DNA from: a virus
IMG/VR virus record: IMGVR_UViG_3300044645_002359
Location: 22,355 to 86,354 of that record
DNA: 64,000 nt
Direction: 5' to 3' (one strand)
In this document: piece after piece, positions 1-30,105 of the stretch
Numbering within the stretch: position 1 is the stretch's first letter
Layout of the letters: each line of letters opens with the position of its first letter
Notes under the pieces: model-generated
The model's input: the letters and a program-made list of their open reading frames with translations, nothing else
Databases searched by the model: none
Told to the model about the DNA's origin: nothing
Program-made: the position numbers and the translations under genes

Positions 1-181
1 TCCGGGTAGCTTATATTCCGGGACACGCTTTTGGAGACATGGCCCATCCAGACGTTGAACATGGTATTGTATCATCTAGCAATGGCAAATACGTGTTTGT
101 AAGGTTTGACAGAACAGTTTCACGATTCGGGTGGGACGGAGCTACATCACAATCTTGCTGCCCTGAGGATTTGGTAATCCT

Positions 182-439
182 ATGAATAAGCCCTACTTGT
201 TAATTGCCGGAGACTGCTATTACCCCCATGACACTTTAGATTGGGTAGGTTGTTTCTCAACCTACGAAGAAGCTCGAGAGCAAGTAGAACCCATTACTAC
301 ACATGATTACTACACTCAAGGGAAAAACAAGGGTGAAATTAAGTCTACTCGCACTACTTATGTTGTGAAAGGCGAAGAGTATGGAGCCCGGACTTGTGAT
401 TGGTACGAAATTGTTGACTTGAAGCGATGGACACAGTAA
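182..439 (+). CDS. hypothetical protein (85 aa)
   Basis: ORF in the co-oriented + strand array; no recognisable motif. Confidence 0.4.
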   Translation: MNKPYLLIAGDCYYPHDTLDWVGCFSTYEEAREQVEPITTHDYYTQGKNKGEIKSTRTTYVVKGEEYGARTCDWYEIVDLKRWTQ

Positions 440-454
440 ACACCTCCCTACAAG

Positions 455-522
455 GACCGGTCACCCGAACCGAACCGGTCGGTTTGCACCCTTGTTTCTG
501 CAGCGCAGAAACGGTTTAATAT
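455..522 (+). promoter_or_regulatory. hairpin-promoter cassette copy 1 (GACCGGT…ACCGGTC hairpin; -35 TTGTTT; palindromic spacer; -10 TTTAAT)
   Basis: Matches the recurrent cassette consensus; sits in an intergenic gap. Confidence 0.5.
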
Positions 523-583
523 TAGAGTGAAAGACTCCGAAGCCCTGTTGACACGACTCGTCGAGGGTAAATACTAAGTTCCT

Positions 584-1063
584 ATGTACTCAGCAATGAC
601 TATTGAAACTGAAGCCATCGATAAAATCGAACTGGTATTCAATCACATTCAAAATGTTCAAAGAAGTTGTTATAAGCTAGGGCTGAAACTTATGAAGCGT
701 GGAGATATTGAACTTGGTCGCAACCTAATTGCCAACGGACAAATCCACGACAACTCCAAATTTAAAGGCATTGAGTTTGCCCACCTTTTTCATTCAGACC
801 CTTTGCTTTCTGAAGTCGTCAAGCACCATCAATCTGTGAACCCTCATCACCCCGAATACTGGGGTAGCATCCACGATATGCCAAAAGTTTACGTTGCTGA
901 AATGGTGTGCGATTGGTATGCTCGGTCAACTGAGTTCGGTACCGGTATTCGAGAGTGGATTGATAGCAAAGCAACACAAAAATTCTCCTTCACTACTGAA
1001 GACCAGGTGTACAAAACCATTCAGGAAATGTTGTTCTTACTACTTGAGCCGAGCTTCAGCTAG
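584..1063 (+). CDS. hypothetical protein (159 aa)
   Basis: ORF downstream of cassette copy 1. Confidence 0.45.
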   Translation: MYSAMTIETEAIDKIELVFNHIQNVQRSCYKLGLKLMKRGDIELGRNLIANGQIHDNSKFKGIEFAHLFHSDPLLSEVVKHHQSVNPHHPEYWGSIHDMPKVYVAEMVCDWYARSTEFGTGIREWIDSKATQKFSFTTEDQVYKTIQEMLFLLLEPSFS

Positions 1064-1099
1064 CCTGGGTTATCTCTCTTTCGCACAGCGAAGGCTCGG

Positions 1100-1160
1100 G
1101 TAATCGACCGAAGACTTTCGGCTTGCACCCTTGTCTTTGCAACTCAAAACTACTATACTA
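1100..1160 (+). promoter_or_regulatory. hairpin-promoter cassette copy 2 (CCGAAgactTTCGG hairpin; -35 TTGTCT; -10 TATACT)
   Basis: Conserved cassette with the ATG at 1166, 6 nt after the -10. Confidence 0.5.
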
Positions 1161-1165
1161 TAAGT

Positions 1166-1405
1166 ATGAATTACAACGAGTTCCTCAAGCGTTTTTGGGA
1201 TAGTGCCGGAGAGGCGCGGCATAGTTTAAGGGTAGGGCAGCACCTTATGAATGAACTTGGCAAGGTGAGCCCCATTGCTTACAGCCGAATTCCCTCAGAG
1301 TTAGACCCGTTCTACAACGATCTTCTTCTCCCCAACTTCCTCAAATACCTGAAAGCAAACTGGAACGACCTGACCGATCCACTCAATTCTCCCGAACGCA
1401 AATGA
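1166..1405 (+). CDS. hypothetical protein (79 aa)
   Basis: ATG immediately after the cassette -10 (leaderless layout). Confidence 0.45.
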   Translation: MNYNEFLKRFWDSAGEARHSLRVGQHLMNELGKVSPIAYSRIPSELDPFYNDLLLPNFLKYLKANWNDLTDPLNSPERK

Positions 1406-1584
1406 CTCGTGTAGTGCCACTGTCTAACAAAGCTAAGAATCGTTTGGTCAACACCATGGAAAGTAACCCGGATATCCGCATTGAACAGCGGAAGGGTAAT
1501 AAGGTGTTTTTCATTTCAGCAAACGGAAAGTACTGTGCCTGGGTCGATCTTTCCGGCGACCCTAACTGGGTCATTGTTCTTTAA
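1402..1584 (+). CDS. hypothetical protein (60 aa)
   Basis: ATGA overlap with the upstream ORF. Confidence 0.35.
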   Translation: MTRVVPLSNKAKNRLVNTMESNPDIRIEQRKGNKVFFISANGKYCAWVDLSGDPNWVIVL

Positions 1585-1754
1585 CACACCTGTCTTTAAC
1601 CTTAACGTGACTCAACTAAAGACCGAAGTACCTTCCCAAACCATTAGCGATCCGATAGCCCTTAGCAACCCTGTTGTTGATAGTGTCCTTATTATAATAC
1701 TTTTCACCGCTCTCGTTTTCATGTTGAAACTCGCTGTGAAAGTCTCGAAAGTTC

Positions 1755-1816
1755 GGTAAACCGAACCGATCCGTTCGGTTCTCACCCTTGTTTCTGCAAG
1801 GCAGAAACGCTATGAT
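1755..1816 (+). promoter_or_regulatory. hairpin-promoter cassette copy 3 (GGTAAACCGAACcgatccGTTCGGTT; -35 TTGTTT; spacer CTGCAAGGCAGAAA; -10 TATGAT)
   Basis: Consensus copy; ATG at 1823. Confidence 0.55.
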
Positions 1817-1822
1817 TATTGT

Positions 1823-2065
1823 ATGAAACACTACCGGCTGTCCGTATCGGGTGAAGTGGTTACCAAGATCGTTGGTTTCGACTCACCCGACTCAGAACTT
1901 TACATTATCGCCCACGCTCACAATCTTTTGAAGTCGGGTGATTTTTTCTTCTTGGAGAAGGCAATTCTTGAGGAATGCCGTCCTAAAGATGAATCTGACG
2001 TCACTGTCGCAGAGTTTACTTTTAGCCGAGAAGGTTGGACTGCTTTCTACCCTGCGAGGGTCTAG
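1823..2065 (+). CDS. hypothetical protein (80 aa)
   Basis: Leaderless ATG after the cassette. Confidence 0.45.
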   Translation: MKHYRLSVSGEVVTKIVGFDSPDSELYIIAHAHNLLKSGDFFFLEKAILEECRPKDESDVTVAEFTFSREGWTAFYPARV

Positions 2066-2347
2066 GGTCTAAGGGCAAAGCCCTACCATACGGCTCAAAA
2101 CTGGGTGTAGCTCGGGCAGACGTTGCGGTGGACAAGGGGGCAGTACCCTTTAGCTCCACTTTCCCTTTACGGGGCTAATCTAGTTTCGACACCGTGAAAG
2201 TGTCACTTGAGTGAAAGCCGCTTGCATAAGCACAAAATAGACGCTAACAAAATCGTCAAATTCGAGAGGACTGCCGTAGCCGTTTGAGCTATAGCATTCT
2301 GACTCATTGCGGGGGCTTCGGCCCCCCTTAAACCAATTAGAAACAAA

Positions 2348-2740
2348 ATGTTGCAAATTACCTACGAGTCAGAACTAGACTCTGACTACAGGAAAGAACT
2401 TGATTCTTGCACAAGCGTTCAAGATTTGAAAGCCTTGATTGACAAGTACAAGGCAGTCTCCCCCGACTTAAAGGATGTTGTAATTGAGAGCGATGCCGAT
2501 TACAATGAGTTCAAGAAAGGCTTAGCCGTGGAACGAACTGGGCAATATGCTGGTGACGAATGGTGTGAAAGATTTGGCTCTTTGGCCCTTCCTGTCTACA
2601 TGCTTTACGCTTCACTTTTAGCCGGAGAGTATGGGGCACCTTGGGGAGTTGCTTACTTTAGAATGTGCGCGGAAGGGGCTGTCCCAGGTGTAGACCCTGA
2701 GCTTGCGAAACAAGAAATTTTCTCATTTCTGCCCAGTTAA
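2348..2740 (+). CDS. hypothetical protein (130 aa)
   Basis: ORF. Confidence 0.45.
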   Translation: MLQITYESELDSDYRKELDSCTSVQDLKALIDKYKAVSPDLKDVVIESDADYNEFKKGLAVERTGQYAGDEWCERFGSLALPVYMLYASLLAGEYGAPWGVAYFRMCAEGAVPGVDPELAKQEIFSFLPS

Positions 2741-2745
2741 ACAAA

Positions 2746-3096
2746 ATGGAAATCAACCCTAAATTATTGACCTCTTCCGGAAAGAAGAAAGTTAAGAAAA
2801 TCCTAGCAGAGTACAGTCCCCCAAACTATAACAGTCTAAATTGGAGTGACTTCCAAAGGGGGGAAGATTATTACAAGTTCCAATCTGAGTGGAATACCCA
2901 CAAGGTCCTCAGGGAAATTTTTGATGGGTCTGGAATTGAAGAGAATGATGAATACGAAAGCGGTTTTGAAGACCTTAGTTATAATGAAGGAATAATTTAC
3001 ACGAACATTGCCAACATTATAATCAGTTTAAGAAACCAAATTCAAAACACTGAAGAAACCGCCGATGAAGCTATCAGGCGATTGAATAATATCTGA
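2746..3096 (+). CDS. hypothetical protein (116 aa)
   Basis: ORF. Confidence 0.45.
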   Translation: MEINPKLLTSSGKKKVKKILAEYSPPNYNSLNWSDFQRGEDYYKFQSEWNTHKVLREIFDGSGIEENDEYESGFEDLSYNEGIIYTNIANIIISLRNQIQNTEETADEAIRRLNNI

Positions 3097-3104
3097 TTGG
3101 AAAA

Positions 3105-3338
3105 ATGACGCACTTACTTCTTGAAGGGCCAGACGGACGGTCTTATATTGCTAGGAAAGCAGAGCTTTCAAATGTTCCATGGGCATATGATAGGGAAAGC
3201 TGGTTGGTCACAGAATTTAACCACGGTACTAACCCGCCCACAGATTGGTGGATTGAAGAATCGGTGAACCAATGGGGTAGAAGCCAGACCTATGATAACC
3301 TGGACAAGTTTACCATCTTAGCAGCTCACTCAGACTAA
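3105..3338 (+). CDS. hypothetical protein (EGPDGR.YIA family, paralog A)
   Basis: Shares LEGPDGRSYIA with the next ORF's VEGPDGRHYIA. Confidence 0.45.
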   Translation: MTHLLLEGPDGRSYIARKAELSNVPWAYDRESWLVTEFNHGTNPPTDWWIEESVNQWGRSQTYDNLDKFTILAAHSD

Positions 3339-3359
3339 CCCTTGCACCTTTAAAACAAA

Positions 3360-3581
3360 ATGAACATTTACAATCAAGTTGCCTTAGTTGAAGGGCCTGA
3401 CGGAAGACATTATATCGCAGAATGGCACCCTAACTCTTACTGTATTATAGAAAACGAGGGAATTGGGTGGTGGTTGGGACCATTCGAGAAATTTGGATTA
3501 TTTGATGACAGGGAATGTCCGAAAGGTCCCCTACCTTCTTTGAAGGGTTACAAGATACTTGCACTTCCCCCGAAGCAATGA
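3360..3581 (+). CDS. hypothetical protein (EGPDGR.YIA family, paralog B)
   Basis: Tandem paralog of 3105..3338. Confidence 0.45.
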   Translation: MNIYNQVALVEGPDGRHYIAEWHPNSYCIIENEGIGWWLGPFEKFGLFDDRECPKGPLPSLKGYKILALPPKQ

Positions 3582-4285
3582 AAATCCTATCAAAATTCAA
3601 AGATTACTACGACTATGTAGAATACCTGTATAGCCAAGAAGGTGGAGACCCGGCTAACACTTATGTTCGTAGGGACGTGGAAGGTAGGGACGAGTATAGT
3701 TGTGGTTATTTTTCCATTGGTGCGAAAGGGGGAATTCCACCCAAACCGTTGCCAAAAGATGGCATATACTGGAAAAGAAACCCAGATGTATTCCCCTGGT
3801 CATATAAATGGTGCTCGGTATGTGGTAAGTTGTATCTATTGGTGGCTGAGGAACCTGGAGTGTGTCTCCCCAAATATAAACTAATTACCGAGGCTCACCC
3901 ATCCCTGGACTTAGTCTACAGCAGATCCCCTGGAGTTTGGTTCAAAGAACCGGACATTAAAAAGCTAATTGGAGTACCTAACCCAGCCTGCGTTGAAATA
4001 TCCAGAAAGCTACAAATTCCTGTCTTCATTTTGGAAGATTCCTACTACAAGAACCTTGGGGAACCATTTCATGTGACACTGAATCGAACGGTGCCAAACT
4101 TGGGGGAACTGGGGTTTGCGTCTATAATTTCTGCTGAGCAAATGTACCAGGAGATTGCAATGTTTTTGACTTCCCTTAGGGATAACCCCGACAGTTTGCC
4201 ACCAGTTAATATTTCGGACAAGGACCGATTGACACAAAAGGGGTTTGATTCTAAGATTTCTTTCCGCGGAAAACCACCTAAATAA
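3578..4285 (+). CDS. hypothetical protein (about 235 aa; start assigned at the ATGA-overlapping ATG)
   Basis: Long ORF; the ATG at 3578 overlaps the upstream TGA; the track alternative start is 3515. Confidence 0.45.
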   Translation: MKILSKFKDYYDYVEYLYSQEGGDPANTYVRRDVEGRDEYSCGYFSIGAKGGIPPKPLPKDGIYWKRNPDVFPWSYKWCSVCGKLYLLVAEEPGVCLPKYKLITEAHPSLDLVYSRSPGVWFKEPDIKKLIGVPNPACVEISRKLQIPVFILEDSYYKNLGEPFHVTLNRTVPNLGELGFASIISAEQMYQEIAMFLTSLRDNPDSLPPVNISDKDRLTQKGFDSKISFRGKPPK

Positions 4286-4313
4286 CCCACCGTAAATTCA
4301 ACAACAACAACAA

Positions 4314-4688
4314 ATGTATTTCTACGCTATCTCCCGCCGGGACCTTCCAACGCACCAACAAGCTATTCAGTCGGCCCATGCTCAGCTGGAGTATTGCCGT
4401 TTACGGGGAGTTCCTGAGGGCGAGCATCCCTCTTTCGTTTGGTTAACGGTGGAGGAGAGGTGGCACCTGATAGATTTACTCTTATCATTAGAGTATCACT
4501 CTATACCGGTAGTTAAGTTCCACGACCCAGACTACAAGGGCTATGACCCTAGCGCAATCGCTTGTTTGGTTAATGAGGAAAAACGATACTTGTTGTCTCA
4601 TCTTCCCCTCTGGAAGTGTGAAGCTCCTCGAAAGAAAAGTGGGCTGTTGAGCTGGTTTATCAGAAGAGGGGTAAGTTTAACTGAGTGA
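4314..4688 (+). CDS. hypothetical protein (124 aa)
   Basis: ORF. Confidence 0.45.
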   Translation: MYFYAISRRDLPTHQQAIQSAHAQLEYCRLRGVPEGEHPSFVWLTVEERWHLIDLLLSLEYHSIPVVKFHDPDYKGYDPSAIACLVNEEKRYLLSHLPLWKCEAPRKKSGLLSWFIRRGVSLTE

Positions 4689-4698
4689 ATGAGATACA

Positions 4699-6291
4699 AT
4701 GCAAGGTTCCTTTTCTGAACAGTCACTGAAGCAGTACGAAGAGTTAATCGGAGAAATAGCTTCTGTAAACTTTTCCGAATTAAATTCAGATGTGTACGAT
4801 TTCACACGTTGCGTTCGCGCGGACGGTACTGTCTACGGTTCACGAGGAAAGTGCCGCAAGGGACGTGAGGCTGCCGCAGGCGCTGGCCCTTCTCAAGCCC
4901 CGAGGAAGAGTACGGCAGCTCGAATGGCTGCTGCCGCTGAAAAGTTAGAAAGTCCTAAGCAAACTCCGGCCAAAGTTAAGGCACCGGTTCCCGCTCCCGT
5001 AGCAACTCCAGCAGTTAGAACCGTTAAAAAGCCCAGGGCAGCCCCACTCACCGCTGAGGGAAAGGCAGAGAAGAAGTGGCTCGCACAGAAAGATAAATTA
5101 GACGCGATAAAGGCAGAACACGCCAAGATGATTGCTGAGGTTGAAGCGCAGGGGCACAAAGTATACGCCACCGGTACGGGGGCCAGTATGCTTCATAGGC
5201 TGGCTAAAGAGAGGGGAATTGCTACACCGGCTCAGCTATCCAGTATGCGAATAAAACTCTTCCAACAAGAGCCTGAGCGCATCAAAAAAGAAAGGTTGGC
5301 GGAAGAAGAGAAGAAAAGACTGTCGGAAATTGCTGGAACCACTAGAGAACAGCGCAAGGGGATGGTCCGTGAGCGAATTGAGGAGCTGAAGAAGAGCAAA
5401 TATCTAGACACGTTGAAGGACGTTAATAACAACGTCGAAATGATGAAGAAGTGGATAGAAACAGACCCTTCCATGGATACCCTGAAAAACCGTGTTGCTT
5501 TGACGGCAATGCGGTCTTTCCGTGCGCAAATGGTGAGAGAAGCAAGGCTTAAGCGAGAAGAAAAGTACAGGAGCCTTGACGAATTCCTCAAAGAGTCGCC
5601 CAAGTATAACAGAACCCCTGGTTCCAGGGAGCCTATGAAAGCTAAGTATGATGACAGCGAAAGGGAGCAAAAAAGACTTGAAAAGATTTATGAAGCACAA
5701 GGGTTTAACGCTAGACCAGAACTTGTAAGGTCAAGATCTGACCTTGAGAAAAGGAAGGACATCCTAAGAGAGCCTGACGGAAGGCCACTAATTCTCTATC
5801 GAGGGGTATCGGAAGAAAGCTTAGCAAGACAGTTCCAAGGCTCTGGTCCAGACGGAGACAGACACTACCCTGGTCGGGGGGTGTATGGAAACGGGAGTTA
5901 CGCTGCTTCTGCGGGGGGAAATCCGGGTTCTTGGAACACGGACGGAAACTTTGACAAGACTGCACAAAGAACAGCTTCTTCGTATACGAGTAGTGGTGGA
6001 AACCCTAAGGATAAAGTTACAGCCTTCGCTCTTCGTTCGGACGCAAATGTGGTTCAGTTCGAAGGGACAAATCCTGCGCTAAGGGACTTAGAATACAGAA
6101 AATGGTCAAGAGAAATTAGGAAACAGGCGTCAGAGAAATTCGGGGCTGAGTTTAACGATCAGGGCGAAGCTGCCGCTGCTATGGGAATCCACGCCTATAG
6201 AGTTCCAATGAGTTCTGACGAAGACTACTGGATTATTCTAAATCGCGGTGCTGTCATCGCTGCACAAGATTCTCAACTACCAGACTTATGA
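4699..6291 (+). CDS. ADP-ribosyltransferase-like protein (R-S-E-type motifs), N-terminal DFTRCV…GKC module, K/E/A-rich central coiled coil
   Basis: C-terminal region carries LYRG…YTSSGG…QFEG, which resembles the Arg, STS and QxE motifs of ADP-ribosyltransferase toxins and T4 Alt. The N-terminal 45 aa are shared with the ORFs at 23382 and 29773. Confidence 0.5.
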   Translation: MQGSFSEQSLKQYEELIGEIASVNFSELNSDVYDFTRCVRADGTVYGSRGKCRKGREAAAGAGPSQAPRKSTAARMAAAAEKLESPKQTPAKVKAPVPAPVATPAVRTVKKPRAAPLTAEGKAEKKWLAQKDKLDAIKAEHAKMIAEVEAQGHKVYATGTGASMLHRLAKERGIATPAQLSSMRIKLFQQEPERIKKERLAEEEKKRLSEIAGTTREQRKGMVRERIEELKKSKYLDTLKDVNNNVEMMKKWIETDPSMDTLKNRVALTAMRSFRAQMVREARLKREEKYRSLDEFLKESPKYNRTPGSREPMKAKYDDSEREQKRLEKIYEAQGFNARPELVRSRSDLEKRKDILREPDGRPLILYRGVSEESLARQFQGSGPDGDRHYPGRGVYGNGSYAASAGGNPGSWNTDGNFDKTAQRTASSYTSSGGNPKDKVTAFALRSDANVVQFEGTNPALRDLEYRKWSREIRKQASEKFGAEFNDQGEAAAAMGIHAYRVPMSSDEDYWIILNRGAVIAAQDSQLPDL

Positions 6292-6437
6292 ACATTAACG
6301 AACCAAGCACCAGCCGTCAACTTGCTGCCCTGATTCAGGGTGTCAAAGGCGAGCACAGAGACCAATTTATTGAAGACGCTAAGAAAGCGAAAGACATGGG
6401 ATCTTTCATCAAGCACTTTCTGAAATCTTACGAATGA
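6288..6437 (+). CDS. small hypothetical protein (49 aa)
   Basis: ATGA-coupled small ORF, below the track cutoff. Confidence 0.3.
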   Translation: MNINEPSTSRQLAALIQGVKGEHRDQFIEDAKKAKDMGSFIKHFLKSYE

Positions 6438-6607
6438 CCGAAGAAGAGGAAACCTTCGAGGCCACAATGCAGAAACTATTCACTGCAAAGTGGAATATCC
6501 CTCAAGCAACCGCAGCTTTGGGCAAATCGGCGAATAAAGAAAACTGGGAAGAAACGAAAGATCTATTTCGGGAGTTTTGTGCTTTACACCCGCCTGCAAC
6601 CTTTTGA
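6434..6607 (+). CDS. small hypothetical protein (57 aa)
   Basis: ATGA-coupled small ORF. Confidence 0.3.
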   Translation: MTEEEETFEATMQKLFTAKWNIPQATAALGKSANKENWEETKDLFREFCALHPPATF

Positions 6608-6831
6608 GGTTGGCGGAAGGGGAGAAGTTTACCGGACCTTCGGCGAAGCTAAAATATGGGTGCCCTGAGACGTAAATACGTCGCCCATTATGAGAGGGTT
6701 CCCTGCCGAACTAGCAGGGTAGGACTCGGAGCCTAACATTGCGCTCTTAAACTTCTTGTGCCGTGGGAAAACGCACCTTGAAACAGGTGAGTGACCGTTT
6801 CCTATACGGATGTTGAATTCTATTTTACTGA

Positions 6832-7509
6832 ATGCTTGACCTCACTACACTTGTGGCCGTTTCCATCGTTGGAACTGCTGCAACCCCTCTGAGCGGATTC
6901 ACTGAGTTAAACAGACTGGAATACCCTGTCCCTCAGCAAGTCGCTATCAGAGTGATTGCCCCAGAAACGACCCTGGAATCGGGCCTCATTTGCACAGGCT
7001 GCGATCCCACAAAGTTTCTATCGGCTCCCGCTTACAAACTCACACCAGAGCGCAGAGCCCTTTTAAATACCATTCGCTTCGCTGAAGGAACCTGGAAAGA
7101 TGGCCACGAGGATGGCTACCGGGTTTTGTTCGGAGGTCGAATGGTTTCGTCTTTAGATAGACACCCGAACCAAATCCAATACTCCTCGCGCTACACCAGC
7201 GCAGCAGCCGGAGCTTACCAATTCCTTCCGGGAACTTGGGGAGAAGCCTCAAGAAAACTCAACCTTCTAAACTTCGGGCCTAAGAGCCAAGACCAAGCTG
7301 CTCTCTTTTTGATCGAACGGCGTAATGCCTTGAGCCTCGCAGATTCCGGGAAGATCACCCCAACGCTAATCGCAAAGCTAGCTCCTGAATGGGCCTCTCT
7401 TCCGACTTATGGCGGCAACAGCTACTATGGTCAGCCGGTCAAAAGGTATGAGGACCTGCGGCGCTTCTATGAGAGTAACTTGGCGATGCTCCGCCAGGAG
7501 GCAAGCTGA
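6832..7509 (+). CDS. lytic transglycosylase, lambda R-like (glycoside hydrolase family 104 (GH104)) with an about 70-aa N-terminal extension
   Basis: AEGTWKDGHEDGYRVLFGG…AAGAYQFLPGTW…FGPKSQDQAALFLI…WASLP aligns with lambda R over SEGT…GYDVIVGG…GAGRYQLL…FSPKSQDAVALQQI…WASLPG. Confidence 0.7.
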   Translation: MLDLTTLVAVSIVGTAATPLSGFTELNRLEYPVPQQVAIRVIAPETTLESGLICTGCDPTKFLSAPAYKLTPERRALLNTIRFAEGTWKDGHEDGYRVLFGGRMVSSLDRHPNQIQYSSRYTSAAAGAYQFLPGTWGEASRKLNLLNFGPKSQDQAALFLIERRNALSLADSGKITPTLIAKLAPEWASLPTYGGNSYYGQPVKRYEDLRRFYESNLAMLRQEAS

Positions 7510-7613
7510 TGAACGGTTTCCCGAACTTTACTTGCTCGTCGCAACAAGCTACAATGGTAGCGAGCCTGAGTAATCAGGCACTGAGCCGTGGTTGCCAACC
7601 GCAACAAACACGG

Positions 7614-7982
7614 ATGTCGAACTCTAATGTTTTCATGCGTTTTTCCAAATTAGCCTCATTCTTCCTCGTCGCAGGAATTCTTTCCGGAGTACCTGCACAA
7701 GCAAGGCAGTGTGGCCAAGCCAGTTGGTATGGCCCTGGCTTCTACGGGAACAAAACTGCCAACGGTGAAATTTACCGTCGTGGTACCATGACTGCAGCGC
7801 ACCCTTCACTCCCCCTTGGTAGCTGGGTAAGGGTTGTAAACCGAGATAATGGACTCATTGCCGATGTTCGTATTAACGACCGTGGTCCTTACTATGGTGG
7901 TCGAATTCTCGATCTCGGTCACGGTGCTGCAAGGAGCCTTGGAGTTAGTGGCGTGGCCAACGTTTGCATTTCTCGTCTCTGA
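7614..7982 (+). CDS. RlpA-like double-psi beta-barrel (DPBB) protein with a signal peptide
   Basis: ASWYGPGFYGNKTANGE…AAHPSLPLGSWVRVVN…NDRGPY…GRILDLGHGAARSLG matches the RlpA/3D-domain signature; the N-terminus MRFSKLASFFLVAGILSGVPAQA looks like a signal peptide. Confidence 0.6.
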   Translation: MSNSNVFMRFSKLASFFLVAGILSGVPAQARQCGQASWYGPGFYGNKTANGEIYRRGTMTAAHPSLPLGSWVRVVNRDNGLIADVRINDRGPYYGGRILDLGHGAARSLGVSGVANVCISRL

Positions 7983-8037
7983 TCGCCATGGGTGATGCCT
8001 TGCTGGTACTCACCCTTCTTTCCTATACTTCTTAAAA

Positions 8038-8256
8038 GTGACACGATTCAAATTTCGGACCCCTAACGGCTTGACCCGGATTGAGCTTTTAATCTGTGTG
8101 GCTATTTTTGGGATCCTTGCATCAATTGTTGCCGGGGAACTCTCTGGTAAAAGTCCGTACAGAATGAGTGACTGTGTTCGGTCCGGGGGAAATTGGACTG
8201 AAGGTTATGAACTCGGGCATGACACCGCACTTTGCATCTACGGCCCGAGAAAGTAA
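8038..8256 (+). CDS. membrane protein with a prepilin-type N-terminal segment (LTRIELLICVAIFGILASIVAG)
   Basis: Resembles the type IV pilin N-terminal methylation helix; sits downstream of the lysis genes, so it may instead be a holin-like transmembrane protein. Confidence 0.35.
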   Translation: MTRFKFRTPNGLTRIELLICVAIFGILASIVAGELSGKSPYRMSDCVRSGGNWTEGYELGHDTALCIYGPRK

Positions 8257-8276
8257 GTTCAACAACCTAAACTACA

Positions 8277-9248
8277 ATGTCCCAACTCAAAATAGAAACT
8301 CTTTTCAAGTACTTGAAAGTTACAGATTGGGGGGGAGAAGAGGTTTATTTCCCCTTTTACCATCAGAGGCCGTGCCCTCCGCCTGGGACTAGATGGCAAA
8401 AATTTGACCCAGTTGATCTAGGATTCAACACTGGAAATCACTTCCCCCACACCCAGATGTTTGTAGTAGGGAATCCGGATAGGGAAAGTACAAATATGTA
8501 TGTAGCTTTCCGTGAAAAGAGTTTACTAGAAAAGTTCATTTTCACGGTGAAGACACATTTCCACCCCTCAAGAGATGACTTTGTGTTGGTAGATGCAATT
8601 TTGTCTTTTATTAGAAAGTTTCCAGAATGTTGTTCCTCAGAAGCTTTCGAATTACAAAAAGAGATCCTACGGAAAAAAGGAAATTCCGAATTCAGCCGTT
8701 TCGATTTTTACGATAGAAGCCACATATACATTAACATAGTGAGTAAGTCCGAAGCTTCATACAAGGTCCATAACCTGAGGGATAGCTCCCGTTGTGTTAC
8801 AACACTTTCTCCTACAAGCCATTTCATGATTGAGCGGTCGGAGTCTAAAGCCAGGAAACAAAACCCTTTCTTCACGTCAGTGAATCGTAAAATCCTAGAG
8901 ATTACTAAAAAAGATGGGCAGACTTTGTTTTTTCCGATATTGCGAAATTATTTCATGGGAGTCGCAATGAACACTTTTCAAGACGCATTAGATTTTCTAG
9001 ACCTTGTCTCTCCCAATGTATATCCAGACTCGGACGTGCGTACAGTCGGGAAAGCTAAAAAAATCCTAGAAGATGTAACTAGAAGACTTTTTCAACTGAA
9101 AAACAGTTTAAATGCCCTCTCAGCCAACGAAGAGACAAGTAAATGGGTCGTCCAGGAAGTCCAAAAAGTCTATCCGAAGGGGAAAGTTTTTCATGGCTCA
9201 CGGACAACGGCCTATGAGTTCGGCCCTATAGGAGAAACTATGGTATAA
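8277..9248 (+). CDS. hypothetical protein (323 aa)
   Basis: Long ORF with no identifiable motif. Confidence 0.5.
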   Translation: MSQLKIETLFKYLKVTDWGGEEVYFPFYHQRPCPPPGTRWQKFDPVDLGFNTGNHFPHTQMFVVGNPDRESTNMYVAFREKSLLEKFIFTVKTHFHPSRDDFVLVDAILSFIRKFPECCSSEAFELQKEILRKKGNSEFSRFDFYDRSHIYINIVSKSEASYKVHNLRDSSRCVTTLSPTSHFMIERSESKARKQNPFFTSVNRKILEITKKDGQTLFFPILRNYFMGVAMNTFQDALDFLDLVSPNVYPDSDVRTVGKAKKILEDVTRRLFQLKNSLNALSANEETSKWVVQEVQKVYPKGKVFHGSRTTAYEFGPIGETMV

Positions 9249-9404
9249 TCCCCCATGGTAAATCTCCCAATAATCGACCCAATAGCAAGGTGATTGTAAC
9301 CCTGAGAGGGCAAAGTGCTATTTGCACCGGGGTTCATAACCCCACAATCACATTCCGGGATTTGTAACCCGGATCTGTACAGACAAAACATAAACAAAAA
9401 AAAA

Positions 9405-10253
9405 ATGAAAATTCGCATTATTGCTACCTCAGCAGCTATCGCTTCACTCGCCACTCCCGCGCTCGCCGCACCTCAATTTTCTGACGCTGCTCGGACAAAT
9501 TGGGCCTATGGCGCTCTTCAAAACCTCGCTGAAAAGTATGGTTGTGTTGCTGGTTATCCCGATGGTACTTTCCGTGGTAGCAATTCCACCACCCGTTACG
9601 AAAGCGTTGCTCTCGTGAGTGCCTGCATTGATCGGGTTTATGACACCCTGAGCCAAGCTGATCGTCGCATTGCAGACGAGGCTCGCATTGCAATCGTAGC
9701 GACTGATGCTCGTGTTTCTGCCCTTGAGAACACAGCAACTCGGAAAGCGGTTGGAGTCGGCAGTTACGTTGGTGCAGGCGTTAACCTGAATCGTCAAGGC
9801 GTTAGCAGCGATGCCTATGGAAACAATCGCACTGTTGTTGGAGCTACCCTTCAGGGACGTTTCCCCCTGGGTAACCTCTACGGAGTTTCCACTTCTGCCC
9901 GCCCCTATGTAAACTTTGCGGCTGGACCAGATAGCCAAATTGGTTCTGCCCTCGGTGTTCTGGGTACCGTTGACGTTTCCTTGGCTGGGCGTACCATTGG
10001 CGGTATCCTCGTTAGCAGCACTAACCTCTACTTCGGTGCCGGTGGCCAATGGGCTTTGACGAATAATGGTCAGGCCAACTATCAAACTAGCGTTGGTCAA
10101 GGTTCTCAGTTTGTATTTGTTGCCGGTGTTGAGCGTTCCTTCACTCCGTCCCTGGTTGGTTTCGCTGATCTGAAGTTCCCGACCCAGGAAAATGGTGTTG
10201 CTGGAACGGCTTACGCCCCAGTTGGCACTATCGGCCTCGGATTTAAGTTCTGA
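9405..10253 (+). CDS. SLH-domain outer-membrane beta-barrel protein (cyanobacterial Som/OprB-like mini-porin)
   Basis: Signal peptide, then the SLH motif FSDAARTNWAYGALQNLAEKYGCVAGYPDGTFRGSNSTTRYESVALV, then a Gly/Ser/Thr-rich region of alternating residues ending in …GLGFKF, the outer-membrane-protein C-terminal Phe. Confidence 0.6.
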   Translation: MKIRIIATSAAIASLATPALAAPQFSDAARTNWAYGALQNLAEKYGCVAGYPDGTFRGSNSTTRYESVALVSACIDRVYDTLSQADRRIADEARIAIVATDARVSALENTATRKAVGVGSYVGAGVNLNRQGVSSDAYGNNRTVVGATLQGRFPLGNLYGVSTSARPYVNFAAGPDSQIGSALGVLGTVDVSLAGRTIGGILVSSTNLYFGAGGQWALTNNGQANYQTSVGQGSQFVFVAGVERSFTPSLVGFADLKFPTQENGVAGTAYAPVGTIGLGFKF

Positions 10254-10258
10254 TTGCT

Positions 10259-10537
10259 GTGGGGGGTTTAACCCCCTCTTTCTTTTCATCCATTATTCCA
10301 AGCAAAATGACACCCGAAGATCAAACCAACGCAGTTATCAACCAAGTTAAAACTTCTTCGTTTTTCGTGGTTGCCGCACTGTCCCCCAGCTTCCTTATTT
10401 CTCTGCTTTGCGTTTTTGCTTACTTGGTTACGCAATTCCCCGAAATTAAGGAGCCAGTTTCTAACGTAATCAGCAACCTCCTGGCCCGTGCCGGAGTTAG
10501 GCCCAACCAACAAGACACTCACACCGATAGCAAATGA
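10259..10537 (+). CDS. small membrane protein (92 aa)
   Basis: Hydrophobic segment FVVAALSPSFLISLLCVFAYLV. Confidence 0.4.
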   Translation: MGGLTPSFFSSIIPSKMTPEDQTNAVINQVKTSSFFVVAALSPSFLISLLCVFAYLVTQFPEIKEPVSNVISNLLARAGVRPNQQDTHTDSK

Positions 10538-10673
10538 GTTCGATCCTTTCCCTTGAATTGATTTTCGCTCTGGTTATGTACGGGGCTGGTGTCATTACGG
10601 GGGCTTGGATTGTCGGAAAGCTTCGGCGCCAAAACCCTGTGACAACCAACAGGAATTAAAGTTGAGAGTATGG

Positions 10674-10738
10674 GGCGGAAAACCGAACGAAAACCTTCGG
10701 TTTTCACCCTTGTTTTCGCTCACCGAAAACGGTATGAT
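10674..10738 (+). promoter_or_regulatory. hairpin-promoter cassette copy 4
   Basis: AAAACCGAAcgaaaaccTTCGGTTTT hairpin; -35 TTGTTT; spacer TCGCTCACCGAAAA; -10 TATGAT. Confidence 0.55.
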
Positions 10739-10766
10739 TACTACATAAGCGAAACGAAACTCCCAG

Positions 10767-11018
10767 ATGACCATCAGCCAAATAGTTCACGAGCTATCCC
10801 TCGACAAGCTCAAAGAGCTCACTTCAGACTACGAACAGTTCGAGTGCGATGGTTCGATTCCCAACTGTTACCTTCGAAGGATGGCGGAACGGGCTCAACG
10901 AGAGCTGGGCCTGAACTCAGGCTTTCCTGTAATTCTTTGGGTGGAGAAGGTTGCGTTTGAAGCTTACCGTGAACTTTATAAGCGGTTGCAACACTTGCTT
11001 AGCGAAGAGGTCGGTTAA
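10767..11018 (+). CDS. hypothetical protein (83 aa)
   Basis: ORF downstream of the cassette. Confidence 0.4.
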   Translation: MTISQIVHELSLDKLKELTSDYEQFECDGSIPNCYLRRMAERAQRELGLNSGFPVILWVEKVAFEAYRELYKRLQHLLSEEVG

Positions 11019-11085
11019 CCGACCTTTACCTCCATCCTAAACAAGGCTATACTTAATTTAACAAGAAACTACGACGGAGCTGAAA

Positions 11086-12075
11086 ATGATCGCCCTACCC
11101 AACGTCAAGGAAGAAACGGTTATCGAGCCGTTAGTCAAAGAACTGATTCAGGTTACCGTTGAAACAGAAGGCGGTTTGGGTTACGTTCATAGGAAAACTT
11201 TTCAATTCAGTGCAGGAGAGACTCAAGTTCGCCTCAGTCCTTTGCCTACAGGAGTCAGGAAGATTCGAGTTAGGGCGGATATTGAGAGCAGCCAAACTTT
11301 GGTAGAACTTCTTCTGACTTTGGATGCTATTAACAATCTAGAGTACCAAGGTCCTGTCGGATTAACCCTCCCATACCTTCCTTACAGCCGTCAAGACCGC
11401 GCCTGCGCACCTGGCGAGGCTTTTGCCCTTTCTGTTCTTGTAAACTGCCTCGTCCCGTATCTCGGTGCCGACGACACTATCACAACTTGGGATGTTCACA
11501 GCAGTGTGGCACGAACCCTTTTCGATAGTAAATTCCAGGGAGTATTCTATAATGTCTCCGCAGCGAGTCTCTTGCAGAATTTTGAGCTTGAAAAAGATGT
11601 GGTATTCAATCCCTCAACCATTGTCATTGCCCCAGATAAGGGTGCTGTAGACCGGGCCACAGAAGTTCAAAATGTCCTGGGACTAGAACGGACCGTGTAC
11701 GCAACCAAAGTTCGCAATCCGGACGACGGCCAGATCCTAAGAACAGAAGTTCCCGAAGACGTGAATTACCGAGGCAAAAACCTTTTGATTGTAGACGACA
11801 TTTGTGATGGTGGCCGCACTTTCATCGAACTTGCCAAGGTTTTGCGAGAATACGAGCCGTCACGTATTGACCTTTATGTGACACATGGGATCTTCTCAAA
11901 AGGTTTCAAAGTTTTTGAGGGCTTTATTGACAACATCTACGTAGCCAACCTGTTGATGGAACTCATTGAGCACCGCGATGGACGAAAGTCGTTCCCATCA
12001 GGTTCTGACCTCTGTGAAAATGTGGGATGTTATAGAGAATTTCCGAGCAACGTGACTTATCTCCGAAACATTTAA
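11086..12075 (+). CDS. ribose-phosphate pyrophosphokinase (PRPP synthetase)-like; candidate ADPR-PP synthetase (Adps) of an NAD-reconstitution pathway
   Basis: 329 aa; PRPP/PRTase motif NLLIVDDICDGGRTF; Prs-like length; immediately upstream of the NAMPT-like gene. Confidence 0.65.
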   Translation: MIALPNVKEETVIEPLVKELIQVTVETEGGLGYVHRKTFQFSAGETQVRLSPLPTGVRKIRVRADIESSQTLVELLLTLDAINNLEYQGPVGLTLPYLPYSRQDRACAPGEAFALSVLVNCLVPYLGADDTITTWDVHSSVARTLFDSKFQGVFYNVSAASLLQNFELEKDVVFNPSTIVIAPDKGAVDRATEVQNVLGLERTVYATKVRNPDDGQILRTEVPEDVNYRGKNLLIVDDICDGGRTFIELAKVLREYEPSRIDLYVTHGIFSKGFKVFEGFIDNIYVANLLMELIEHRDGRKSFPSGSDLCENVGCYREFPSNVTYLRNI

Positions 12076-12113
12076 CCCTGCTCGACAACCCAAGTCAAAC
12101 CTCTTAACAAACA

Positions 12114-13616
12114 ATGAAACTCTTCGCCCCTAACCTTACAGACTTCTACAAGACGGGTCACTACCGCCAGTACCCTGAAAACACGGAGTTCATCTACTCG
12201 AACATGACCGCACGGTCGGACCGTCTCGCCAAGATGCTCCCCGACTACGACCACAAAGTAGTGGTAGCAGGTATTCTGGGCACAGCAGCTTGGTACCTTC
12301 GCGACCTTTGGAACGATACTTTCTTCAGTCAACCTAAAGACCGAGTACTTGAAAAGTACCGCAGGCGAATGGACTCGGCTCTCGGACCTGGCGCCGTGAG
12401 CACAGCCCACCTGGCCGAACTTCACGACCTCGGTTACCTTCCAATCCGAGTAAAGGCTCTCCCAGAAGGCACCCGTGTCAATCTGCGCGTCCCCTTCCTC
12501 ACGGTGGAGAACACACACCCCGACTTCTATTGGGTGACTAACTACATTGAAACTGCCCTGTCGGCTGAAGTTTGGAAGCATGTCAACAATGCAACCATCG
12601 CCTACGAGTTTCGCCGCCTACTTGACCGATACGCAGATCTAACAGGGACTGACCGGTCTTTTGTTGACTTCCAGGCGCACGACTTTTCCTTCCGAGGAGT
12701 TAGTGGTATTCACGATGCTGCTGCCCACGGGATTGGACACCTGTTCTCCTTCAAGGGTACGGACAACATCCCGGCAATTGACTTCTTGGAAGATTACTAC
12801 AACGTTGAAGGCGAATTTATCGCCGGTGGCGTCCCTGCTACCGAACACAGTGTTATGTGCACCGGGGGCCAAGATACTGAGATTGACACCTACAGGCGTC
12901 TGATTTCTGAAACTTACCCGACTGGTATTGTTAGCATTGTTAGCGACACTTGGGACTACTGGAACGTTCTCACGAACATTGCTGCCCAACTGGAGGAGAC
13001 GATCCTGAATCGCCAACCGGATGCCCTTGGCCTTGCCAAAGTTGTATTCCGCCCTGATAGTGGAGACCCCGAGAGAATCCTTTGCGGCGACCCGGACGCT
13101 GAACCCGGCAGTCCAGCCTTCAAAGGCTCTCTGCAGCTCCTCTGGGACCTCTTCGGAGGCACCGTAAACGAGCAGGGCTTCCGCGTCCTTAACCCTCGCG
13201 TGGGCCTCATCTACGGTGACTCGATCACCCTTCCTAGAGCTCTTTCCATTCTGGAGAACATGCACAGCAACGGATGGGCCAGCGGTAACGTTGTTTTCGG
13301 TGTGGGTTCGTACACTTACCAGTTCCACACTCGCGATACATTCGGCATCGCTTTCAAGACGACTTGGACTCAAATCAACGGTCAACCTGTCGAAGTTATG
13401 AAAGATCCGATTACCGACCGTGGAACTAAGAAGTCGGCCAAAGGGTTGCTTCGTGTTGAAGAAGAGAATGGCGAGTACGTTCTCTACGAGCAACAAAGTC
13501 GAGATGAAGAGAGTCGAGGAGAACTGCGAACCGTATTTATGAATAGCCAGGTCTTCGAAAGACCCGACGAGAGTTTGACGAACATTCGCAGTCGTCTTGT
13601 CTCGCCAAATTCCTAA
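12114..13616 (+). CDS. nicotinamide phosphoribosyltransferase (NAMPT/NadV)-like; candidate Namat
   Basis: 500 aa; the N-terminus NLTDFYKTGHYRQYPENTEFIYSNMTAR matches the NAMPT start (TDSYKVTHYKQYPPNT…); overall NAPRTase-family architecture. Confidence 0.75.
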   Translation: MKLFAPNLTDFYKTGHYRQYPENTEFIYSNMTARSDRLAKMLPDYDHKVVVAGILGTAAWYLRDLWNDTFFSQPKDRVLEKYRRRMDSALGPGAVSTAHLAELHDLGYLPIRVKALPEGTRVNLRVPFLTVENTHPDFYWVTNYIETALSAEVWKHVNNATIAYEFRRLLDRYADLTGTDRSFVDFQAHDFSFRGVSGIHDAAAHGIGHLFSFKGTDNIPAIDFLEDYYNVEGEFIAGGVPATEHSVMCTGGQDTEIDTYRRLISETYPTGIVSIVSDTWDYWNVLTNIAAQLEETILNRQPDALGLAKVVFRPDSGDPERILCGDPDAEPGSPAFKGSLQLLWDLFGGTVNEQGFRVLNPRVGLIYGDSITLPRALSILENMHSNGWASGNVVFGVGSYTYQFHTRDTFGIAFKTTWTQINGQPVEVMKDPITDRGTKKSAKGLLRVEEENGEYVLYEQQSRDEESRGELRTVFMNSQVFERPDESLTNIRSRLVSPNS

Positions 13617-13625
13617 ACTCAGGGC

Positions 13626-13645
13626 AAGGGAGAGTTTACTCTCCC
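13626..13645 (+). terminator. hairpin GGGAGAGTttaCTCTCCC after the NAMPT-like gene
   Basis: Perfect 8-bp stem directly after the stop codon. Confidence 0.4.
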
Positions 13646-13716
13646 TCTCCGGGGGGTATAATGATGAAAGAACTAACGTCCCCGTGCGATGGGGGAACAC
13701 CTAAATCACTAAGGTT

Positions 13717-14307
13717 ATGGACTACAAGACAATCGCATACAAAAAGACCATTCTGGTCCTCAATTCCACGTATGAACCACTCAATAGTACCTCATGGCGC
13801 AGGGCTAGAGTTCTAGTCTTGAAGGAAAAAGCTCATGTAGTTTCTAGTCGCACAATTCGCCTGAAAAACTACGTGAAGGTCCCCCAAGCCAAAATGGCTG
13901 CTGGAAAGCCTTCTCGCGCTCTCATTTTGAAGAGAGACGGACACACCTGCCAGTACTGTGAGTATTCCGGTCCCAACCTTACAATCGACCACGTAGTTCC
14001 GAAGTCTCGAGGCGGCCAAGACACTTGGCAGAACCTTGTTACTAGCTGCCTAGAATGTAACAACTGCAAGGACAATCGTACCCCAGAAGAATGGGCTATG
14101 GCCCTGAAGAAGGTGTTTGCCAAAGAAACTACGAATGTTTCCCCCTTGCCATTCACCTGGGATAGCTTCCAGGTCGGAATGATGGAGACCAGAGTAAACA
14201 GCCGGGGCACAACCTTAATTGGAAAGCCGAAGGCACCTTACAGCAAGATGTCTGTTACGATTAGCACTGCCGAAGTTGACGAGTGGCGCGAATACGTTTA
14301 CGTGTAA
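13717..14307 (+). CDS. HNH endonuclease
   Basis: CQYCEYSGPNLTIDHVVPKSRGGQDTWQNLVTSCLECNNCK is an HNH motif. Confidence 0.75.
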   Translation: MDYKTIAYKKTILVLNSTYEPLNSTSWRRARVLVLKEKAHVVSSRTIRLKNYVKVPQAKMAAGKPSRALILKRDGHTCQYCEYSGPNLTIDHVVPKSRGGQDTWQNLVTSCLECNNCKDNRTPEEWAMALKKVFAKETTNVSPLPFTWDSFQVGMMETRVNSRGTTLIGKPKAPYSKMSVTISTAEVDEWREYVYV

Positions 14308-14553
14308 CATCAACAGCCCTGTTTATCGGGGCTTTGCTTTTACAAACTTCCCCACTGAAACCTTACTGAAGTTTACAGAGAAAGTGAAAAAATCTAAGTT
14401 TAAGAAACTCATTCAGAAGCCACTAAGATTTCATCACCAGGACATTCACGAAGAGATTGAGGGTTTAACAGACCTTCTGCTTAACGTTTCCAACCGGCTG
14501 ATTCGAGTAGAGTCCTTGCTAGATAATCTAACTTCAAATAGCCCGAAGGGAGG

Positions 14554-14613
14554 GTAACCGAACGAAAGCCTTCGGTTCACACCCTTGTTTCTACGAGGCA
14601 GAAACGCTATACT
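14554..14613 (+). promoter_or_regulatory. hairpin-promoter cassette copy 5
   Basis: GGTAACCGAAcgaaagccTTCGGTT; -35 TTGTTT; spacer CTACGAGGCAGAAA; -10 TATACT; ATG at 14620. Confidence 0.55.
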
Positions 14614-14619
14614 TAGTTC

Positions 14620-17366: not shown

Positions 17367-17372
17367 TAGTTC

Positions 17373-18082: not shown

Positions 18083-18088
18083 GGAACC

Positions 18089-23381: not shown

Positions 23382-24032
23382 TTGATAATGAATCCTGGGT
23401 CAATCTCCGAAAGCACTCGCGAACTTGTATTTGACTTTACTCGGTGCGTCAAAGCCGACGGGAGCTTTTATGGTACGTCAGGTAAGTGCCGAAAAGGCTC
23501 CGAAGTTGATGCCAAGGAAAAACCCTATAAAGTAGGAGTAACTTGGGGCAAGTACAATATTCCAACCCCAGGCCACGCTCGCGTTGTCAAGAACCTGCTC
23601 AAGAAATCTCAGGTTGTGAACGTGATTATGAGCGGAGCGAAGACCAACGTCGACTGGAACTTGCGAAATCTAATGTTTCGCCGAGTGCTCAAGCAACAAG
23701 GGGTGGACGTTTCTCGTGTGAAATTCGTTCACGCCTCAAATACCTTTGAAGCTCTGACAAAGATCATTGATTCTCAAGGTTCGAAAAATGTTCTCCTTGC
23801 ACTTGGCGAAGATCGTAAGAACTACCTAGATGGACTGACCAAAAAGTTAGGGATCGGAGGGCAGTTAATCCCTCGTGCCGCTGGGTCGGAAAGTTCAACT
23901 ATGATGCGTGGGTTGATTGACTCCAAGGACTTCAAAAAGTTAGGAGAAATATACGGCAATGATCCTTATTTGGTGAAACTGGCTAGAATTATCCGGAACG
24001 AAGAGACGAAGAGGGACGGTAAACCGAACTGA
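23382..24032 (+). CDS. NMN/NaMN adenylyltransferase-like nucleotidyltransferase with the N-terminal DFTRCV…GKC module
   Basis: N-terminus LVFDFTRCVKADGSFYGTSGKCRKG is the shared module; then GKYNIPTPGHARVV (an HxGH-type motif) with cytidylyltransferase-fold similarity; paralog of 47873. Confidence 0.5.
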   Translation: MIMNPGSISESTRELVFDFTRCVKADGSFYGTSGKCRKGSEVDAKEKPYKVGVTWGKYNIPTPGHARVVKNLLKKSQVVNVIMSGAKTNVDWNLRNLMFRRVLKQQGVDVSRVKFVHASNTFEALTKIIDSQGSKNVLLALGEDRKNYLDGLTKKLGIGGQLIPRAAGSESSTMMRGLIDSKDFKKLGEIYGNDPYLVKLARIIRNEETKRDGKPN

Positions 24033-29772: not shown

Positions 29773-30105
29773 ATGCAAGGTTCATTCTCTGAAGATTCTC
29801 TTAAAATCTTTCACAATTTGGCTTCACAGTCCCAAGGTTTAAGCTATAGTGAGTCTAGGGAAGATTCGTATGACTTTACACGCTGTGTAAGACCAAATGG
29901 GACCAGCTTTGGAACCTCAGGGAAATGCACACCACCGAATCGCCAAGCGGCGCCAAGTAATCTTGTAGCGGAAGTTAACCGCGAGGAAGTAGAGGCTCGG
30001 CAGTTAATGTCCGGTGGCCGCAGAAACAGCAGGGCTATGCAGCGCCGCGCAAAAGAACTACTTGAGAGTGCTCGAAGAAAGAGGAGCGGCAAGCCGACGG
30101 CATGA
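29773..30105 (+). CDS. small basic protein made of the shared N-terminal DFTRCV…GKC module plus an Arg-rich tail
   Basis: MQGSFSEDSLK…YDFTRCVRPNGTSFGTSGKC is near-identical to the N-terminus of 4699. Confidence 0.5.
   Translation: MQGSFSEDSLKIFHNLASQSQGLSYSESREDSYDFTRCVRPNGTSFGTSGKCTPPNRQAAPSNLVAEVNREEVEARQLMSGGRRNSRAMQRRAKELLESARRKRSGKPTA

Follow-up and report, generated by a model that had tools for sequence, protein, structure and literature searches.

The window analysed here is a stretch of 64,000 nucleotides (positions 22,355 to 86,354) from the virus record IMGVR_UViG_3300044645_002359. It comes from a large cyanophage, which nucleotide similarity did not identify and which has no close relative among isolated phages. 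The open reading frame (ORF) at 4699–6291 encodes a protein that is probably a modular effector, with a C-terminal domain of ADP-ribosyltransferase (ART) fold that would use NAD+ to modify a macromolecule of the host. This domain combines an Arg, a Tyr and an Asp in what is here called an R-Y-D configuration, and belongs to an uncurated family that forms about 200 clusters at 50% identity. At the other end of the protein is a short two-Cys module, which is found in front of a range of other domains.

The ART fold of the C-terminal domain is well supported by modelling. An ART had been proposed from the sequence alone (the original prediction), and the fold that AlphaFold predicts is indeed that of an ART. 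In the model, strand 1 (ILYRG) ends on R368, and is followed by a Gly-rich loop, by strand 2 (SYAASA, containing Y401) and, further on, by strand 5, (E)DYWII, which leads into an LNRG turn. The table of structural neighbours is headed by the Albireti toxin (score 6.9), SAIP (6.7), Exotoxin A (6.6) and the cyanophage A4 chain 9k3a_B (6.3). These are followed by diphtheria toxin (6.1), ParT (5.9), MbcT (5.7), Tankyrase and PARP1-4 (5.0–5.8) and AcrIF11 (5.0), with RhsP2, Tpt1 and DarT as weaker matches. Enzymes of the Arg-Ser-Glu (R-S-E) clade are present in the table at TccC3 (3.4), ART2.2 (2.6) and CARDS (2.5), and are not the closest neighbours. A Foldseek search against viral models returned PSS2 gp030 first, then uncharacterised phage proteins, and later proteins labelled 'ART-PolyVal-like' (E 8e-5 to 1e-3) and one fusion of a capsid protease with MuF.

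The protein has 51 homologues at E < 1e-50, all of them unannotated and on metagenomic contigs, and its orthologues on metagenomic phage contigs are 79–89% identical to it. For the C-terminal domain, a phmmer search with residues 320–530 against 1.84 billion representatives gave 199 clusters, and a local iterated profile gave 189 near-complete copies of the domain. R368, in the LYRG motif (residues 366–369, nucleotides 5794–5805), is present in every one of the 189 copies and in all 52 close homologues. The residue after it at the end of the strand (365–369), G369, is likewise invariant in the close homologues and is found in 180 of the 189 copies. Conservation is similarly high in the Gly-rich loop (G394, G397 and G399, 188–189 of 189), at Y401 (185) and at N515 and R516 after strand 5 (187 each). 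D509 is kept in at least 90% of the close homologues, and family-wide the position holds Asp or Glu in 115 of 189 copies. The family pattern for strand 2 is G-[ST]-Y-A-A-[SA], with no S-T-S motif, and that for strand 5 is D-[YF]-[WYF]-V-I-L-N-R, with no [QE]-x-E at its start.

The predicted pocket is unusual: its Arg would be that found in R-S-E enzymes, and its Tyr and Asp those found in the His-Tyr-Asp (H-Y-D) enzymes. The domain is nearest to the H-Y-D group ART-PolyVal/Tox-ART-HYD2 and to the diphtheria toxin/PARP side of the superfamily, and not to the R-S-E enzymes Alt and C3. ART-PolyVal/Tox-ART-HYD2 domains have a His on strand 1, a Tyr on strand 2 and an Asp on strand 5 (Iyer et al. 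2017, PMC5512222), and the H-Y-D clade has been placed beside the PARPs and the cholix/diphtheria toxins, and contrasted with the R-S-E clade of Alt/VIP2 (PMC5512222). The present domain shares with ART-PolyVal the ART fold and has, in the model, a proposed strand-2 Tyr and a candidate strand-5 Asp to match; both occur in phage proteins tied to MuF and to virion delivery, and both can be present in tandem. The difference is in strand 1, where ART-PolyVal has His and the present family has its invariant Arg, and in the near-invariant Asn-Arg that follows strand 5 here.

Sequence searches place the domain in no known family. No Pfam model matches the ART region of the target protein, of its 52 homologues or of 75 distant members, and phmmer and profile searches of PDB sequences gave no known family for it. 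A homologue search with the domain profile returned only 19 matches, all unannotated. The hidden Markov model (HMM) of ART-PolyVal, PF18760, has no match on the target protein or its close homologues; its only match is on P0131, a distant member with the domain in three copies, and at 21.4 bits, where the cut-off is 31.2, it is sub-threshold; it falls exactly over the homologous region. The R-S-E HMMs PF03496 and PF01129 have no match at E up to 10 in the protein or up to 1 in the 52 homologues, and the same HMMs do match true R-S-E cargo carried on the same N-terminal module.

The C-terminal domain of the ejection protein gp27 from the Anabaena cyanophage A4 (A-4L; PDB 9k3a chain B; PMC12002296) has the same series of motifs, with His replacing Arg. 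Its Gly-rich/strand-2 motif, GVGEWGSGTYFS, matches GRGVYGNGSYAAS of the target, and DTTLVIN is in register with DYWIILN. The link between the two rests on structure and motifs, because hhalign of the family profile against the gp27 domain gave a probability of 6.5% and tblastn with the gp27 domain found only A-4L itself. A further phage ART, AcrIF11 (PDB 6kyf), resembles diphtheria toxin, has the key residues H-F-H-D and loses its function with the change D115A (PMC11383003). A catalytic Asp is therefore compatible with activity, and Asp509 would be the catalytic acid of the present domain. AcrIF11 differs from the target in these residues and in being a stand-alone protein of 130 residues that acts on Cas8f (Csy1), and there is no demonstrable homology between the two.

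The middle of the protein had been described as probably coiled or disordered. Only part of it is predicted to be disordered, namely residues 56–118, a low-confidence linker with 12 Lys and Arg against 3 Asp and Glu, and with 28 Ala and Pro in 63 residues; residues 119–299 are confidently modelled as helices. The helical region from residue 202 on is common to MuF proteins of the PSS2 type, and the match to PHROG 16619 spans residues 202–523. Between the helices and the ART domain is the segment SPKYxxTPGSxxP, in which Y303, P307, G308 and P312 are at least 90% conserved. It is modelled as extended and non-helical, and nevertheless has a predicted local distance difference test (pLDDT) score of 93–97; it may be packed on the ART domain or in its cleft.

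The domain is typically a C-terminal one: of 184 proteins, 169 have it no more than 30 residues from the end, and tandem arrays of two to five copies occur in 12 proteins. Long members have Phage_Mu_F at the N-terminus, often followed by Zeta_toxin (PSS2 gp030, P0099, P0098, P0096, P0133 and 10 of the 75 distant members), and single members carry an XkdF-type prohead protease or minor capsid protein 2. One of the long members is PSS2 ORF030/gp030 (PHROG 16619, 'minor head protein'), whose C-terminal domain is homologous to that of the target (37% identity over residues 327–523, E 5e-33) and which also shares part of the preceding helical region. The difference lies at the N-terminus, where gp030 has Phage_Mu_F and Zeta_toxin and the target has the Cys module. 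The gp030 gene is about 1 kb downstream of the portal gene, with four small ORFs between them, and ORF030 is among the proteins found by mass spectrometry in purified virions (PMC2784084). A4 gp27 has been seen by cryo-electron microscopy inside the capsid, as part of the pre-ejectosome; the paper does not mention ADP-ribosylation (PMC12002296). The domain thus recurs as cargo of proteins that reside in virions, and this is the best, though indirect, support for an injected effector. Outside phage contigs, a profile scan of genome contigs using the closer alignment found 4 loci, in Nocardia and Clostridia. The contigs concerned (L088–L091, from Clostridia metagenome-assembled genomes and Nocardia cyriacigeorgica) carry distant copies of the ART-like domain at 25–29% identity, and the Nocardia copy, which apparently ends an ORF longer than the 4-kb flank, may belong to a large prophage polyvalent protein.

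The N-terminal module had also been noted as shared, and it is a genuine feature, with copies in the window at 4699–4863, 23388–23540 and 29773–29930. It is about 55 residues long, with a 23-residue two-Cys core that is nearly invariant across proteins whose C-termini are unrelated. The target protein starts with MQGSFSEQSLKQYEELIGE, followed by the core YDFTRCVRADGTVYGSRGKCRKG; AlphaFold models the module as two short hairpins only, with pLDDT 67–79. The second copy in the window is fused to a nucleotidyltransferase-like domain, which matches PHROG 395 cytidyltransferase (E 7e-4) and, below threshold, CTP_transf_like (E 0.03). The third was located by tblastn with related proteins. It keeps the MQGSFSE...YDFTRCVR start, its second motif half is degenerate (GKCTPPN), and the protein has no enzyme domain.

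A scan of IMG/VR gave 90 confirmed occurrences of the module on 79 loci, several of them together on one contig: a contig of 277 kb, which also bears psbA, RNR and a sigma factor, has at least six module genes, and one of 65 kb has four. The cargo of 61 module-bearing proteins includes 7 canonical ADPrib_exo_Tox/ART domains, 5 protein-kinase-like domains, 5 copies of the domain studied here, one APH, one DUF3626 and one HEIGH zincin motif; many of the 61 are basic coiled-coil proteins without a recognised domain. This list of ARTs, kinases, a peptidase and a nucleotidyltransferase mirrors the protein-modifying domains of polyvalent proteins (PMC5512222). A homologue search with the N-terminal 58 residues alone gave no candidates. 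Synechococcus phage S-CBWM1 is the only isolated phage that shares the module, in its protein gp165. The APH-like kinase of the same phage has a different Cys-rich N-terminus, GKKCTRGKSCGSAC.

The module carries different cargo at the same locus. The 277-kb relative L007 (IMGVR_UViG_3300044625_001067) has, in the syntenic slot at 2935–3855, the module followed by a canonical R-S-E ART (FYRG, GSYS, ENEAILPRN), while its copy of the R-Y-D protein lies elsewhere. One ART-fold type has apparently been swapped for another here, and the occurrence of both as cargo on one chassis at one locus is good circumstantial evidence that their roles are related.

On the basis of these observations, we hypothesise that the module is the common 'address' of a multigene family in large cyanophages. 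In the target protein it is followed by a basic linker predicted to be disordered, a helical region and the ART-fold domain. The domain would most likely bind NAD+ and transfer ADP-ribose to a macromolecule of the host at or soon after infection. Delivery from the virion is plausible, since virion-resident MuF proteins repeatedly carry this domain as cargo and an ejection protein has one that it resembles; by this analogy we put it at slightly under an even chance. The module itself might tag proteins for packaging, bind DNA or Zn, or act as an adaptor to a host target. The N-terminus contains a sequence, LIGE (residues 16–19), that is a candidate for the LxE/IxE cleavage site of a T4-like capsid-targeting sequence. 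A bolder proposal, which we offer as a speculation more likely to be wrong than right, is that the module (MxGxFSExxL...[YFW]D[FY]TRCVRxxGxxYGxxGKCRKG plus the basic linker) is an undescribed virion-loading/ejection tag with which one phage could pack an arsenal of swappable single-domain enzymes, and that the R-Y-D domain is an active ART whose catalytic configuration is new. The arsenal would comprise the R-Y-D ART, canonical R-S-E ARTs, protein kinases, a zincin protease and a nucleotidyltransferase, and the tag would then be the functional equivalent, in large cyanophages, of the MuF fusion or of the T4 capsid-targeting sequence.

Several points weigh against an NAD+-using effector delivered in this way. 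Position 509 is acidic in only 61% of the family, and the 189 copies of the domain contain no conserved Glu at all. That R368, Y401 and D509 line one pocket is itself a prediction. If the R-S-E register (E-[VIA]-[IL]-L-[PN]-R) applied, as it can be drawn by aligning ENEAILPRN of the L007 cargo on the turn, D509 would fall at the first Glu and Trp511 at the catalytic position, which would argue against canonical transferase activity. As regards delivery, the target protein has no PF04233 (Phage_Mu_F) domain, and tblastn with the PSS2 MuF region found nothing across the window. The neighbours of the target gene are small ORFs and peptidoglycan hydrolases, with no recognisable head genes. Finally, the sole promoter match upstream (4229–4257) would, if functional, suggest transcription driven by the host polymerase and possibly early, which is mildly against late synthesis and packaging.

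The last of these points would suit the main rival explanation, namely that the protein is an ART-fold enzyme which is not packaged but made inside the infected cell, as ModA/ModB and AcrIF11 are, and modifies a host or defence protein, with the module bringing different enzymes to one host complex. We consider this unlikely, though it deserves to be taken seriously: there is a strong association of the domain with fusions to MuF, prohead-protease and minor-capsid proteins, as well as a resemblance to an ejection protein; the range of cargo is like that of polyvalent proteins delivered by the virion; and in S-CBWM1 the module gene lies close to structural genes of the virion (Table 1).

It is also conceivable, at a distinctly lower probability, that the domain is a catalytically inactive ART-like one, serving as a structural or NAD+/ADP-ribose-binding part of an internal virion or ejection complex. 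The variable acidity of position 509 and the R-S-E register would be in keeping with this. However, the near-absolute conservation of R368, Y401, N515, R516 and the Gly-rich loop over 189 divergent copies is typical of an active site, the tandem copies and the C-terminal cargo position resemble those of enzymatic effector domains, and the locus swaps with a canonical, active-looking ART.

The original prediction had gone further than the fold, and read the motifs LYRG, YTSSGG and QFEG as the Arg, STS and QxE triad of an R-S-E ART like Alt, ModA, ModB and C3, which would be injected and modify host RNA polymerase. All three strings are present in the ORF in that order, and the ordered pattern of [hydrophobic][aromatic]RG, three Ser/Thr and [QE]xE arises in only 0.085% of composition-preserving shuffles of the C-terminal 211 residues, and in 1 of 67 open frames of at least 150 residues in the window. 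It is unusual mainly because the [YFW]RG motif is genuine. The invariance of R368 and the ILNRG turn, which resembles ILPRN/LLPRG of R-S-E enzymes such as the L007 cargo, also favour this reading. Only the Arg of the triad has held up, however. Among the 52 close homologues, the 'STS' positions are kept in 9 (T430), 3 (S431) and 7 (S432), and the 'QxE' positions in 23 (Q453) and 13 (E455). In the AlphaFold model, YTSSGG is in a loop after the helix 420–428 and not in strand 2, and QFEG is in a loop after a two-residue bridge and not in strand 5. T4 Alt and ModA/ModB do resemble the target in being phage-encoded domains of the ART superfamily, and the idea of delivery coupled to DNA is analogous; the difference is that T4 Alt, of the Alt/VIP2 R-S-E-2 clade, has the motifs STS and ExE, and the target family conserves neither. 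Given in addition the silence of the R-S-E HMMs and the low structural similarity to R-S-E enzymes, membership of that clade is rejected and this explanation has very little probability left. There is no support for an enzyme of Alt/Mod type that acts on RNA polymerase, and RNA polymerase as the target of the protein is pure conjecture.

An NAD+-degrading enzyme (NADase or NAD+ phosphorylase) like the RES-domain toxins, with no transfer to a macromolecule, would also need NAD+ and is just as improbable, since there is no sign of the RES signature, H-Y-D ARTs are a better fit to the motif series, and depletion of NAD+ would hurt a phage that invests in NAD+ salvage.

Table 1. Features of the target gene, of its surroundings and of related genes. 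Positions are those of the window except where another contig is named.
Feature	Position	Strand	Remarks
Target coding sequence	4699..6291	+	ATG start, 530 residues; N-terminal tag, basic linker, helical region, C-terminal ART-fold domain
N-terminal module core, residues 33–55, YDFTRCVRADGTVYGSRGKCRKG	4795..4863	+	Two invariant Cys; modelled as small beta-hairpins
Basic Ala/Pro/Lys-rich linker, residues 56–118	4864..5052	+	Predicted disordered, pLDDT 33–48
Helical region, residues 119–299	5053..5595	+	Confident AlphaFold helices, pLDDT 88–95
Extended segment SPKYxxTPGSxxP, residues 300–312	5596..5634	+	Precedes ART domain
ART-fold domain, residues 323–524	5665..6270	+	
R368	5800..5802	+	End of strand 1 (LYRG)
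Gly-rich loop and strand 2, GRGVYGNGSYAAS, residues 392–404	5872..5910	+	Y401 is the proposed strand-2 Tyr
YTSSGG, residues 429–434	5983..6000	+	'STS' of the original prediction; Y429 alone conserved, among close homologues only
QFEG, residues 453–456	6055..6066	+	'QxE' of the original prediction; unconserved
Strand 5 and turn, DYWIILNRG, residues 509–517	6223..6249	+	D509 is the candidate catalytic acid
Sigma70-like match TTGACA-17-TAAGAT	4229..4257	+	10/12 consensus match only; upstream of ORF 4314–4688 and target
124-residue ORF	4314..4688	+	Ends 10 nucleotides upstream of target
PRPP synthetase-like (Prs)	11086–12075	+	Adjoins NAMPT gene
NAMPT/NAPRTase-family	12114–13616	+	Adjoins Prs gene
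Second module gene	23388..24032	+	Fused to nucleotidyltransferase-like domain, GxxxxPGH motif (GKYNIPTPGH)
Third module gene (MQGSFSEDSLK...YDFTRCVRPNGTSFGTSGKC)	29773..30105	+	110 residues, short basic tail
ADP-ribosylglycohydrolase	54655–55704	+	PF03747, E 1.6e-69; PHROG 6572
S-CBWM1 gp165 module protein, 157 residues	L085 5992–6465		Downstream of two putative Ser/Thr kinases, two genes upstream of tail sheath and portal genes

The target gene has a conserved setting in its relatives, in the order 124-residue ORF, target, 57-residue ORF and lysozyme-like gene. The 124-residue ORF has no Pfam or PHROG match. It is syntenic with module-bearing genes in contigs L006, L086 and L087 and lies near them in L027 and L007, and is a possible partner or immunity-like protein. 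Downstream of the target is an envelope-related cluster on the + strand (6832–7509, 7509–7982, 8038–8256 and 9315–10253), which is conserved in L086. Its members are a lysozyme/endolysin-like protein (PHROG 90), a DPBB_1 RlpA-like lytic transglycosylase, a short prepilin-type protein (N_methyl in a relative) and an SLH-domain porin-like protein. The dense set of sigma70-like promoters that had been described for this phage amounts to a modest enrichment in positions 1–20000, where there are 33 sites against 18.5 ± 4.8 in shuffles (about 1.8-fold); around the target gene there are 7 against 4.8 ± 2.3.

Other genes of the window concern NAD+ and ADP-ribose. The adjoining Prs and NAMPT genes form a phage NAD+ salvage pair, which is kept in the 105-kb relative L086. 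Comparable sets of NAD+/ADP-ribose genes have been surveyed (PMC9503650). With its ADP-ribosylglycohydrolase and the target protein, the phage encodes a putative writer of ADP-ribosylation as well as an eraser. The nucleotidyltransferase-like protein of the second module gene has a paralogue without the module, 33% identical, at 47873–48394 (+). To judge from matches that are sub-threshold, such a protein could be an NMN adenylyltransferase that completes NAD+ salvage with Prs and NAMPT. The tblastn searches in the window found no R-S-E ART, kinase, MuF or zeta toxin. The window also contains an RNA ligase at 26429–27586 (+; PHROG 968, E 8e-86) and a Ro/TROVE-like RNA-binding protein at 34271–35764 (+; PHROG 850, E 4e-152), which point to an RNA repair or quality-control module.

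Phage-delivered effectors with an ART fold are already known in principle, as T4 Alt and as predicted ART-PolyVal domains. What can now be read from the models and alignments is a sizeable ART-fold family, seen by no Pfam model and labelled only 'minor head protein' by PHROGs, with an unusual predicted Arg-Tyr-Asp pocket. The family ties two virion-located proteins, PSS2 ORF030 and A4 gp27, to an NAD+-type chemistry not noted by those who described them. Also new is the short, very conserved and previously undescribed N-terminal tag, borne in large cyanophages by a polymorphic set of effectors whose cargo is exchanged at a syntenic locus. The presence of NAD+ salvage genes and an ADP-ribosylglycohydrolase in the same window makes this phage a good system for ADP-ribosylation in the conflict between cyanophage and host. 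If the tag is a packaging or targeting signal, it would offer a simple route to early-acting effectors in the genomes of uncultured cyanophages, and a handle for loading proteins into virions.

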